Shown in pieces: positions 59,745 to 63,999 of a DNA stretch of 64,000 nucleotides; within the stretch, counting starts at the first letter, position 1, and each line of letters starts with the position of its first letter. The translations under genes and the position numbers were made by a program. The stretch is from assembly GCA_949292875.1 (NCBI GenBank), contig CASFBJ010000016.1, positions 31 to 64,030 on the forward strand, in the 5' to 3' direction. The notes beneath the pieces are model-generated. The model saw only the letters and a list, made by a program, of their open reading frames with translations. It was not told where the DNA came from and searched no databases. Origin of the DNA: an uncultured Christensenella sp. Its GTDB lineage: Bacteria > Bacillota > Clostridia > Christensenellales > UBA1242.

Positions 59745-61115
59745 CTATTTTAACAAATTTTCCACAAAATTGATAACTTCTTCTATTGTCATTCTTTTTT
59801 GTTCCATTGTGTCCCTATCTCTTAGTGTAACTGTATTATTTTCTAAAGTATCAAAATCTATAGTTACACAGTAAGGAGTTCCTATTTCATCTTGCCTTCT
59901 ATATCTTTTTCCTATAGAACCTGCTTCATCATAATCGCAATAAAAATGCTTATTTAGTTCTGCATACATTTCTAATGCTTTTTCGCTTAAATTTTTTTGC
60001 AAAGGCAAAACAGCAACTTTATAACAAGCAAGCGTAGGGTGTAAATGCATAACTACTCTTGTATCTCCACCTTCAAGCTCTTGTTCTTCATAAGCATTAC
60101 ATAGTACAGCAAGCATTAATCTATCCGCACCTATACTATATTCTACAACTGTTGGAACATATTTTTCATTTGTAATAGGGTCCATATATAACATACTTTT
60201 ACCACTAAATTCTTGATGTCTACTCAAATCCCATGTTCCCCTGTGATGTATACCATTTAACTCACTCCAACCCATAGGATAATTATATTGAATATCACAA
60301 GCGCATTTTGCATAATGAGCCAACTTATCATGGTCCTTATATCTTAAAAAATCTTGCTTTATGCCTATAGATAGTAGGAAATCTAATGCTTTTTTCTTAT
60401 ACTCATTATAGAATGCAAAACTTTCATCTTCTTTACAGAAAAGTTGATGCTCCATTTGTTCAAATTCTATCGTTCTGTATGTGAAGTTTCCAGGTGTTAT
60501 CTCATTTCTAAAAGCTTTACCTATTTGCGCTATACCAAAAGGTACTTTTGCTCTCATAGTTCTTTGAACATTAAGAAAGTTAACAAATTCGCCTTGCGCG
60601 GTCTCAGGTCTAAGATAAACTATATCTTTGTTATCAGCAACCGTTCCCCTACTTGTTTCAAACATGAGTTTAAATTGTCTAATAGGTGTAAAATTTTTCT
60701 TACCGCAATTAGGGCATTTAATGTCATTATCATCTATAAACTTTTGCATTTCTTCATCAGTCATAGCATCTACATTAATTTGTAAACCTTTTTTCTTTGC
60801 ATAGTCTTCTATTAGGTTATCCGCCCTATGCCTTGTTTTACACTCTTTACAATCCATTTTAGGGTCACTAAAACTAGCAGTATGCCCACTTGCTTCCCAT
60901 ACTTTAGGATTCATAAGAATGGCTGCATCTAAACCATAAGTTGACTTATTATTATAAACAAAATATTTCCACCATGCTTTTTTAATGTTATTTTTAATCT
61001 CTACTCCTACTGGACCATAATCCCATGTATTTCCAAGTCCATCATATATCTCGCTTCCTTGAAAAATTATACCCCTTGATTTACATAAATTAGAAATCTT
61101 ATCCATTGTTACCAT
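59745..61115 (-). CDS. glyQS: Glycine--tRNA ligase (alpha2 type)
   Basis: DYGPVG, YLRPETAQG, GKAFRNEITPGNF, EFEQME, SIGKRYRRQDEIGTPYC. Confidence 0.96.
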   Translation of the reverse strand: MVTMDKISNLCKSRGIIFQGSEIYDGLGNTWDYGPVGVEIKNNIKKAWWKYFVYNNKSTYGLDAAILMNPKVWEASGHTASFSDPKMDCKECKTRHRADNLIEDYAKKKGLQINVDAMTDEEMQKFIDDNDIKCPNCGKKNFTPIRQFKLMFETSRGTVADNKDIVYLRPETAQGEFVNFLNVQRTMRAKVPFGIAQIGKAFRNEITPGNFTYRTIEFEQMEHQLFCKEDESFAFYNEYKKKALDFLLSIGIKQDFLRYKDHDKLAHYAKCACDIQYNYPMGWSELNGIHHRGTWDLSRHQEFSGKSMLYMDPITNEKYVPTVVEYSIGADRLMLAVLCNAYEEQELEGGDTRVVMHLHPTLACYKVAVLPLQKNLSEKALEMYAELNKHFYCDYDEAGSIGKRYRRQDEIGTPYCVTIDFDTLENNTVTLRDRDTMEQKRMTIEEVINFVENLLK

Positions 61116-61149
61116 ATTTTTTTATCTCCTTAACATTTTATATGCTTAC

Positions 61150-61320
61150 AAAGAAAAAGGCGACACTATATCCTTTTTCTTTACTATGGATATAGGGACG
61201 CCTTTAGCGCGGTTCCACCCTATTTATGCTTTATAGCATCACTTAATTAGTAATAACACTTACTTACGCGTACACCATTTTAGTGTAAACTCACGGCACG
61301 CCACGCCGGTCATAGTCTTT
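61150..61320 (-). ncRNA. T-box riboswitch (Gly), transcriptional, ultrashort Stem I
   Basis: AAUAGGG-UGGAACC-GCG...CGUCCCU antiterminator, Stem III, terminator with U-run, GGC codon in the Stem I loop. Confidence 0.9.
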
Positions 61321-61326
61321 AAATTT

Positions 61327-61355
61327 ATTATATATCTAAAATTTATCAATGTCAA
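61327..61355 (-). promoter_or_regulatory. sigmaA promoter of the glyQS leader
   Basis: Perfect TTGACA-17-TATAAT. Confidence 0.85.
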
Positions 61356-61520
61356 CATTAAACAACTATTATTTATCAATATTTTTCATTTTGTTATATT
61401 TTTTATCCATTATTTTTAAAGATGAAAACTTATTTTTAACTAAAATACATTTTTAGCATACCGCTACTTGACTTTTTTATAAAACTACTGTACATTTATA
61501 AAAAATAATAATAAGGATAA

Positions 61521-62675
<1,155 letters not shown>

Positions 62676-63315: not shown

Positions 63316-63999
63316 CTATTGTTTTAATGCAACAATTATAACAAATGATAACGCAATTGTAAGAATTAGTATTGATAAGAACCAATCATTTACATTATTC
63401 TCTACTAGATAATTAGATACAAAATTTACATTATCTTCTTTAGTCTCATTTCCTGAGTCTATCTCACCTTTATCATTACTCCCGCTATTTTCTATATTGT
63501 CATTATTCCCTGTATTGCCATTATTATCTTCACTATCTTCATTTTCCTCATTTCCATTTGAAGAGCTATCATTTTCATCTTCAACTTCTTCAAGTTCTCC
63601 AAATAACGCAACATTTACAACTTCTGCAAGTTCGGGTACAGTTTTTAAAACCAAATCTTTTTCAACTAAATGACTCCCCATTTCAAACAGCATCATATAT
63701 TCATTTAAGTTTTGATTATAATGACCTGAAGCCATATAGATATCTACAAAAAGCCAAGGTGCATATGTTTTGGATACAGACATTAAAAAAAGAGCAAATG
63801 CTTTATTTTTTGCATAATTAGGATTAGCTTTTCCAACAACCATTCTAACCATGCATCTTTCTTCACCATTAACTTCAGTAATGTAAAAACCTCTACTTGT
63901 CCCATCTCTATGTATATCAAATAACGCATCTACATTTTTTTGTAATAATTTTTTAGCAGTTGTGTTACTTCTTAAATACGCATAACTATCGTGTGGAAT
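63316..63999 (-). CDS. spoIIP: Stage II sporulation protein P (5' end outside the window)
   Basis: Frame stays open to the window edge: PHDSYAYLRS..TAKKLL...ALFDIHRDG...VRMVVGKANPNY...YNQNL....LFEMG; C-terminal TM. Confidence 0.85.
   Translation of the reverse strand: MPHDSYAYLRSNTTAKKLLQKNVDALFDIHRDGTSRGFYITEVNGEERCMVRMVVGKANPNYAKNKAFALFLMSVSKTYAPWLFVDIYMASGHYNQNLNEYMMLFEMGSHLVEKDLVLKTVPELAEVVNVALFGELEEVEDENDSSSNGNEENEDSEDNNGNTGNNDNIENSGSNDKGEIDSGNETKEDNVNFVSNYLVENNVNDWFLSILILTIALSFVIIVALKQ

Follow-up and report, generated by a model that had tools for sequence, protein, structure and literature searches.

Can a T-box riboswitch act on transcription without the long Stem I platform that contacts the elbow of the tRNA? 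This question is raised by the leader of glyS in an uncultured Christensenella sp. (assembly GCA_949292875.1), whose source genome comprises 1.04 Mb in 23 contigs and is 94.8% complete. The stretch of DNA analysed, hereafter the window, spans 64,000 nt of contig CASFBJ010000016.1 (positions 31 to 64,030), and coordinates are those of the window unless another contig is named. Working from the letters alone, the original prediction proposed a transcriptional glycine T-box with an ultrashort Stem I, the specifier in its apical loop and a small Stem II, and regarded it as a minimal T-box subclass in a Firmicute.

The glyS leader of the window

All of the elements proposed for the leader were located on the minus strand at the positions originally given to them. 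In the order of transcription, the leader and its gene are laid out as follows:

61327..61355, minus strand: sigma-70-type promoter, TTGACA at 61355-61350, 17-nt spacer, TATAAT at 61332-61327, scoring 12/12
61288..61317, minus strand: ultrashort Stem I, supported by the Rfam alignment, covariation and de novo RNAalifold
61317-61310 with UGA-GUU at 61293-61288, minus strand: K-turn, consisting of C-stem GAC/GUU, bulge UAU and tandem G.A
61308-61304 and 61298-61294, minus strand: Stem I helix CGGCG/UGCCG, 4-5 bp
61302-61300, minus strand: specifier GGC (glycine) in the apical loop UGGCG, with U before and the purine G61299 after
61271..61287, minus strand: mini Stem II, 5-bp UACAC/GUGUA with loop UAAAAUG and no S-turn internal loop
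61249..61270, minus strand: Stem IIA/B pseudoknot, IIA CGC/GUG, loop AGUAA pairing with downstream UUACU
61226..61244, minus strand: AAGUG purine string and Stem III (AUGCU-AUAA-AGCAU), then AA
61194..61221, minus strand: antiterminator (T-box sequence) with 7-nt bulge UGGAACC, UGGA at 61217-61214, fold -11.0 kcal/mol
61205-61156, minus strand: intrinsic terminator hairpin (-19.8 kcal/mol, ViennaRNA), then U-tract UUUUUCUUU at 61158-61150
61131-61125, minus strand: Shine-Dalgarno sequence AAGGAGA, 3′ of the terminator and unpaired, followed by the glyS ATG
59745..61115, minus strand: glyS, dimeric-type glycine--tRNA ligase of 456 aa (NF003211, 626.9 bits against a cut-off of 312)

Under permissive settings, the Rfam T-box family RF00230 matched 61322-61191 on the minus strand (67.9 bits, E = 1.6e-14, model positions 1-219), and this was the sole significant Rfam match in 60900-61600. 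Within the alignment, 76 model positions of Stem I are reduced to 7 nt; the K-turn, Stem II, IIA/B, Stem III and the antiterminator are kept. No distal Stem I, that is, neither the AG bulge nor the elbow-binding double T-loop motif, was found by this globally aligned model. A match of this significance over the full model, with stems that covary in relatives (see below), upholds the T-box identity, and the ultrashort Stem I was thereby recovered by a method independent of the one that had proposed it. At the gathering threshold, Rfam returned no matches across the 64-kb window, the leader reaching 67.9 bits against the required 93. This shortfall arises because Stem I is deleted, and routine annotation therefore overlooks the leader. 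Judged by the usual marks of a T-box, the leader has a UGGN-ACC antiterminator bulge, a specifier, host tRNA and discriminator base that agree with one another, and a terminator that is mutually exclusive with the antiterminator; what it lacks is the gathering-threshold score and a long Stem I with AG bulge and distal loop.

Among the 9 promoter-like sites of 60900-61700 (shuffles average 4.3), the promoter ranks first; being the perfect sigmaA promoter that had been claimed, it would place the start of transcription near 61320. Some 170 nt of intergenic DNA separates it from tgt, the divergent gene upstream of the leader. Further into the leader, the S-turn columns of Stem II (the GAA/AGUA part) are gapped in the Rfam alignment, which, with the loop UAAAAUG, bears out the description of a mini Stem II devoid of an S-turn. 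The adjoining IIA/B region reads CGC-GUAAGUAA-GUG-UUA-UUACU, which allows pairing between AGUAA and UUACU; the predicted pseudoknot is thus present. The arrangement 5′-RRRNG-Stem III-AA-3′, a motif described in TBDB, agrees with that of the leader.

Downstream, the T-box sequence AAAUAGGGUGGAACCGCG...CGUCCCU is aligned by Rfam with high posterior probability and is invariant in relatives. GUCCCUA is common to the antiterminator and the 5′ strand of the terminator; neither structure includes the Shine-Dalgarno sequence. A simple terminator scan that allowed loops of 3-8 nt found none; the loop of the terminator here is 14 nt.

The 33 tRNA genes that aragorn finds in the genome include a single tRNA-Gly(GCC) and a single tRNA-Gly(UCC). 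These two glycine tRNAs terminate in UCCA, complementary to the UGGA bulge, and tRNA-Gly(GCC) carries U73. The assignment to glycine accordingly held, given the position of glyS downstream, the match of tRNA-Gly(GCC) with its U73 to UGGA, and the GGC or GGA specifier found in 38/38 relatives. No K-turn-binding protein of the L7Ae family (YbxF/YlxQ-type, PF01248) was found in the 94.8%-complete genome, despite the consensus K-turn of the leader.

The sole other T-box of the genome precedes thrS (contig C18, 4254-4433, minus strand) and has a conventional long Stem I. It too scores below the Rfam cut-off (85.8 bits against 93). The thrS leaders of 12 other genomes of the family likewise retain a long Stem I, and the truncation is therefore specific to glyS. 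Elsewhere in the window, an open reading frame at 63316-63999 (minus strand) extends past the window end; by eye, its N-terminal part presumably resembles the sporulation protein SpoIIP, which would be notable in a 1-Mb genome.

Occurrence and covariation of the short leader

The regions upstream of glyS were inspected in 30 related genomes. The same short leader was found in several genera of the family to which the window belongs, and three genomes from other families of the order carried conventional glycine T-boxes with a long Stem I. Many family members had no recognisable T-box in these upstream regions, suggesting that the leader has been repeatedly lost or replaced. A covariance model, built from a seed of four leaders with a hand-given structure, was then used to search 151 genomes of the family. 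(With plain MAFFT, the middle region of seven full leaders was misaligned; seed and model-based alignments were used instead.) The leader is present in at least 39 of these 151 sampled genomes, representing 21 of 58 sampled genera, with GlyRS downstream in 38 of the 39 and a contig end in the remaining one. The best 30 loci of the model comprised 29 ultrashort leaders and one thrS leader. GlyRS lies directly downstream in 27 of those 29 and 622 nt away in one, and one is at a contig end. Where the GlyRS match is 622 nt downstream, another open reading frame lies in between. Twenty further short matches were divided between 8 ultrashort glyS leaders and 12 that are the 3′ parts of thrS leaders, with a long Stem I upstream. 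Two more leaders, known from the inspection of upstream regions, complete the 39.

Support for the structure was sought in the pattern of substitutions among these leaders. When 38 leaders were aligned to the model, 98.0% of cells were paired, compared with 36-52% when the partners were slid by 1-3 columns, and the observed covariation score was reached by 0/500 shuffles. Changes on both sides were seen in all 3 + 4 Stem I pairs and in all 5 Stem II pairs, in this set and also in a set of 31 leaders, bearing in mind that the genomes are related, so that genome counts do not equate to independent events. The covariation anticipated for related leaders thus extends to all 12 pairs of Stem I and Stem II. 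Model-fitted alignments are biased towards the structure that they are fitted to, and this was offset by an independent RNAalifold run on a plain MAFFT alignment (first 58 nt, 23 leaders), which recovered the two hairpins, both with loops of 7 nt, and showed compensatory changes at 9/9 predicted pairs. The ultrashort Stem I with its apical-loop specifier therefore stands on this hairpin as well as on the 76 Rfam positions that shrink to 7 nt.

The loop of Stem I reads U-GG(C/A)-purine in 38/38 relatives, with GGC in 33 and GGA in 5; a glycine specifier is thus kept in the loop throughout, in line with the original prediction, and the stems around it covary. One detail required refinement. GGC does lie in an apical loop with a purine after it, on top of the proposed 5-bp helix, and across relatives the loop is best given as 7 nt, N-U-GGC-R-N. 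Such a 7-nt loop, with U before the triplet and a purine after it, presumably resembles an anticodon loop. All five of the GGA-specifier genomes tested encode tRNA-Gly(UCC). We had considered whether the GGA specifier was a consequence of the loss of tRNA-Gly(GCC); this was ruled out, as GCC is retained in 4/5 of those genomes.

Other parts of the design are more variable. Reading the alignments by eye, we found a consensus K-turn in about 22/38 leaders and none in about 16/38. One subgroup within the family has no G.A tandem; there, Stem I is a continuous helix of approximately 8 bp, with Stem II immediately after it. Among the 26 rows listed with a Stem II, 12 have the loop UAAAAUG and 24 contain a run of AAA. 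A strictly defined pseudoknot, requiring IIA (CGN...NCG) and at least 4 bp of pseudoknot abutting the IIA 3′ strand, was detected in 22/31 leaders against a shuffled mean of 1.3%, and its strands vary between genomes (AGUAA/UUACU, UGCUG/UAGCA, GGCUU/AAGCC). By a strict script, 20 of the 38 leaders have both Stem II and the pseudoknot, as in the window, 4 have Stem II without a strict pseudoknot, 6 have the pseudoknot only and 8 have neither, although two of these 8 may have a looser pseudoknot. Some lineages can therefore do without whatever role Stem II plays. Stem II and the pseudoknot, put forward as parts of the design, belong to it in the copy in the window and are optional within the group.

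Beyond the family, sampling was small and gives only a guide to frequency. In an order-level sample (151 genomes), the best 21 non-family loci included ultrashort glycine leaders from three other families, with promoters directly upstream. Five of these leaders come from a single genus with genomes of 1.6-3.0 Mb, and the other two from genomes of 2.2 Mb and 4.2 Mb. The rest of these 21 loci were 2 conventional glycine leaders with a long Stem I and 12 loci before other genes. The leaders of the 1.6-3.0 Mb genus are about 110 nt long; their short specifier hairpin is mounted on an outer helix GCGUUUU/AAAACGC, with a 3′ internal loop in place of the K-turn, and they contain neither Stem II nor pseudoknot. 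At the level of the class, 1/25 inspected loci was ultrashort; it precedes glyQ, and the long version occurs in a genome from that family.

Species genomes were additionally scanned with a pattern, which provides examples and not frequencies. Among the 120 matches listed, at least 18 were ultrashort glycine leaders, 12 of the 18 with GlyRS within the 300-nt flank. The record titles of these leaders include uncultured Christensenella, Christensenellaceae, Clostridia, Clostridiales and Oscillospiraceae, as well as one 'Bacilli bacterium' and one 'Patescibacteria group bacterium'. Two of the leaders are identical, over the stretch compared, to those of two members of the window's family. In the Patescibacteria-titled leader, the hairpin after the antiterminator lacks a T-run and base-pairs with UAGGAG, the Shine-Dalgarno sequence; the design thus seems to occur here in a translational form. 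The notion of a minimal subclass in a Firmicute survives as regards its architecture, and its scope is wider than that of a one-off, the leader being widespread in the family and present beyond it.

Mode of action and competing readings

From its sequence and conservation, we consider it very probable that the leader is a working, transcription-attenuating and glycine-specific T-box riboswitch that controls glyS without the long Stem I elbow platform. We infer tRNA binding, a role for the adenines of the Stem II loop, and antitermination, and would picture them as follows. Transcription would start about 15 nt before the specifier. The K-turn would carry the 4-5 bp helix, whose anticodon-loop-like loop of 7 nt would offer GGC to the GCC anticodon of tRNA-Gly, the GGC stacking on its 3′ purine as it reads the anticodon. 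Complexes between complementary anticodons are known for their stability. The K-turn and the IIA/B pseudoknot may together set the 5-bp mini Stem II beside the Stem I helix, where the adenines of its loop would probably brace the codon-anticodon duplex as a substitute for the S-turn, by analogy with the ileS structures described in PMC7583486. When the tRNA is uncharged, its UCCA end would pair with the UGGA bulge, the antiterminator would be stabilised and glyS transcribed; otherwise the terminator would form.

A hairpin of -8 kcal/mol or lower that ends at a T-run was found in 35/37 relatives, nearly all of which include the 3′ strand of the antiterminator in it. This indicates that the group acts by transcription termination, and the proposed control through the terminator is in keeping with the -19.8 kcal/mol hairpin and U-tract of the window. 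The same terminators, together with the free Shine-Dalgarno sequence and canonical terminator in the window, argue against a tRNA sensor in which an extra factor (a protein, a paused RNA polymerase or the ribosome) replaces the elbow contact, or which acts partly on translation or mRNA stability. We hold such a sensor to be unlikely, even though published kinetics stress the elbow contact in co-transcriptional capture and the Patescibacteria-titled leader, which has no T-run, pairs its Shine-Dalgarno sequence.

Another reading is that a glyS T-box is decaying in this reduced 1-Mb genome and no longer functions, glyS being expressed constitutively by read-through. The small genome (1.04 Mb), the many family members that have no T-box before glyS and the Rfam score under the cut-off would all fit with decay. 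However, compensatory changes uphold the pairs of Stem I and Stem II and the pseudoknot over 21 genera, the specifier, UGGA bulge and terminator are retained in nearly all relatives, and the same design occurs in genomes of 2.6-4.2 Mb from other families. We therefore regard decay as very improbable.

Lastly, a promoter of at least 10/12 was found in 36/37 related leaders, its -10 box ending 14-29 nt (median 22) before the loop UGG, which leaves no room for a long Stem I. A start far upstream that would give a conventional Stem I, which the original prediction had singled out as fatal to its case, is excluded by this conservation. A conventional T-box, in which a far-upstream start and upstream sequence supply a long Stem I with an internal specifier loop, is thus scarcely credible: the 170 nt or so between promoter and tgt would offer space for it and the start near 61320 is a predicted one, but the promoters are fixed close to the loop, a distal Stem I is missing from the global Rfam alignment, the sequences on either side of the GGC loop pair together and covary, and the long Stem I detected in thrS leaders shows that the searches could have found one.

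Relation to known T-boxes

The working glycine T-box that we favour was compared with the published classes. Suddala et al. 2023 (PMC10482949) recognise four T-box classes, of which those with a short Stem I (III and IV) are exemplified by ileS and 'mostly' regulate translation. According to Zhang 2020 (PMC7583486), transcriptional T-boxes generally need a long Stem I with the elbow motif for fast capture of tRNA; a short Stem I mounts its specifier in the apical loop, and when Stem I is truncated there is hardly any tRNA binding unless Stem II is present. The need for a long Stem I and this dependence on Stem II weigh against the reading favoured above, as the mini Stem II here lacks an S-turn. 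The same source relates the absence of Stem II from glycine T-boxes to the strength of GGC:GCC pairing. An exception reported by Giarimoglou et al., in S. pyogenes, is without a pseudoknot. The K-turn is expected in a review to be needed to position Stem II, yet the subgroup of the family without a G.A tandem has a Stem II nonetheless.

The leader in the window shares much with the class II glyQS-type (e.g. Bacillus subtilis glyQS): both are glycine-specific, with GGC followed by a purine, both control a glycyl-tRNA synthetase, and both have a K-turn, Stem III, UGGA antiterminator and intrinsic terminator. It differs in having no distal Stem I and in carrying the specifier in the apical loop. 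Moreover, the single-stranded linker of the glyQS-type is replaced by a covarying mini Stem II and IIA/B pseudoknot. With class III ileS leaders (Nocardia farcinica, Mycobacterium tuberculosis) it has in common a short Stem I without an elbow platform, an apical-loop specifier positioned above a K-turn, and a Stem II followed by a IIA/B pseudoknot. Those leaders, in contrast, are isoleucine-specific, actinobacterial and act through a translational sequestrator, whereas the leader described here is glycine-specific, from Clostridia, and ends in a terminator. The Stem II of class III is long, with an S-turn that is required for binding; here it is either missing or a hairpin of 5 bp that lacks the S-turn. 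The loop likewise differs, being a penta- or hexanucleotide in class III (PMC10482949) and here 7 nt with U before the specifier.

On these sequence comparisons, the architecture appears to lie outside the four published classes (PMC10482949). The T-box kind itself is known; what would be new is a glycine-specific, terminator-type T-box with an ultrashort Stem I. In the literature searched, we found no description of a T-box, whether glycine-specific or transcriptional, that combines a short Stem I with an apical-loop specifier, although older T-box papers that we have not read may bear on the novelty. The TBDB text consulted states that sequences of less than 100 nt were removed and that leaders with 'truncated Stem I' were routed to a translational model. 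Whether the leaders amount to a fifth natural class, being transcriptional, glycine-specific and free of any elbow contact, with a loop-loop contact to the anticodon and the NCCA contact alone sufficing in the members of about 110 nt, is in our judgement an even question.

The views held in these papers are that transcriptional T-boxes need the elbow contact, that a short Stem I belongs to translational ileS leaders that depend on the S-turn, and that glycine T-boxes have no Stem II. The leaders described here combine these features differently, and do so in a form that is conserved and covarying over numerous genera. As natural test cases, they bear on the minimum contacts of a co-transcriptional tRNA sensor, on what can replace the S-turn, and on the loss and gain of modules. 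If the fifth-class reading is true, elbow contact and S-turn would both be dispensable for a transcriptional T-box, and the leaders would include the smallest tRNA-sensing switch found in nature. At 110-130 nt, such a sensor could serve as a compact engineering part. The leaders also show that the Rfam cut-off and length filters conceal a class of T-box in uncultured gut Clostridia.
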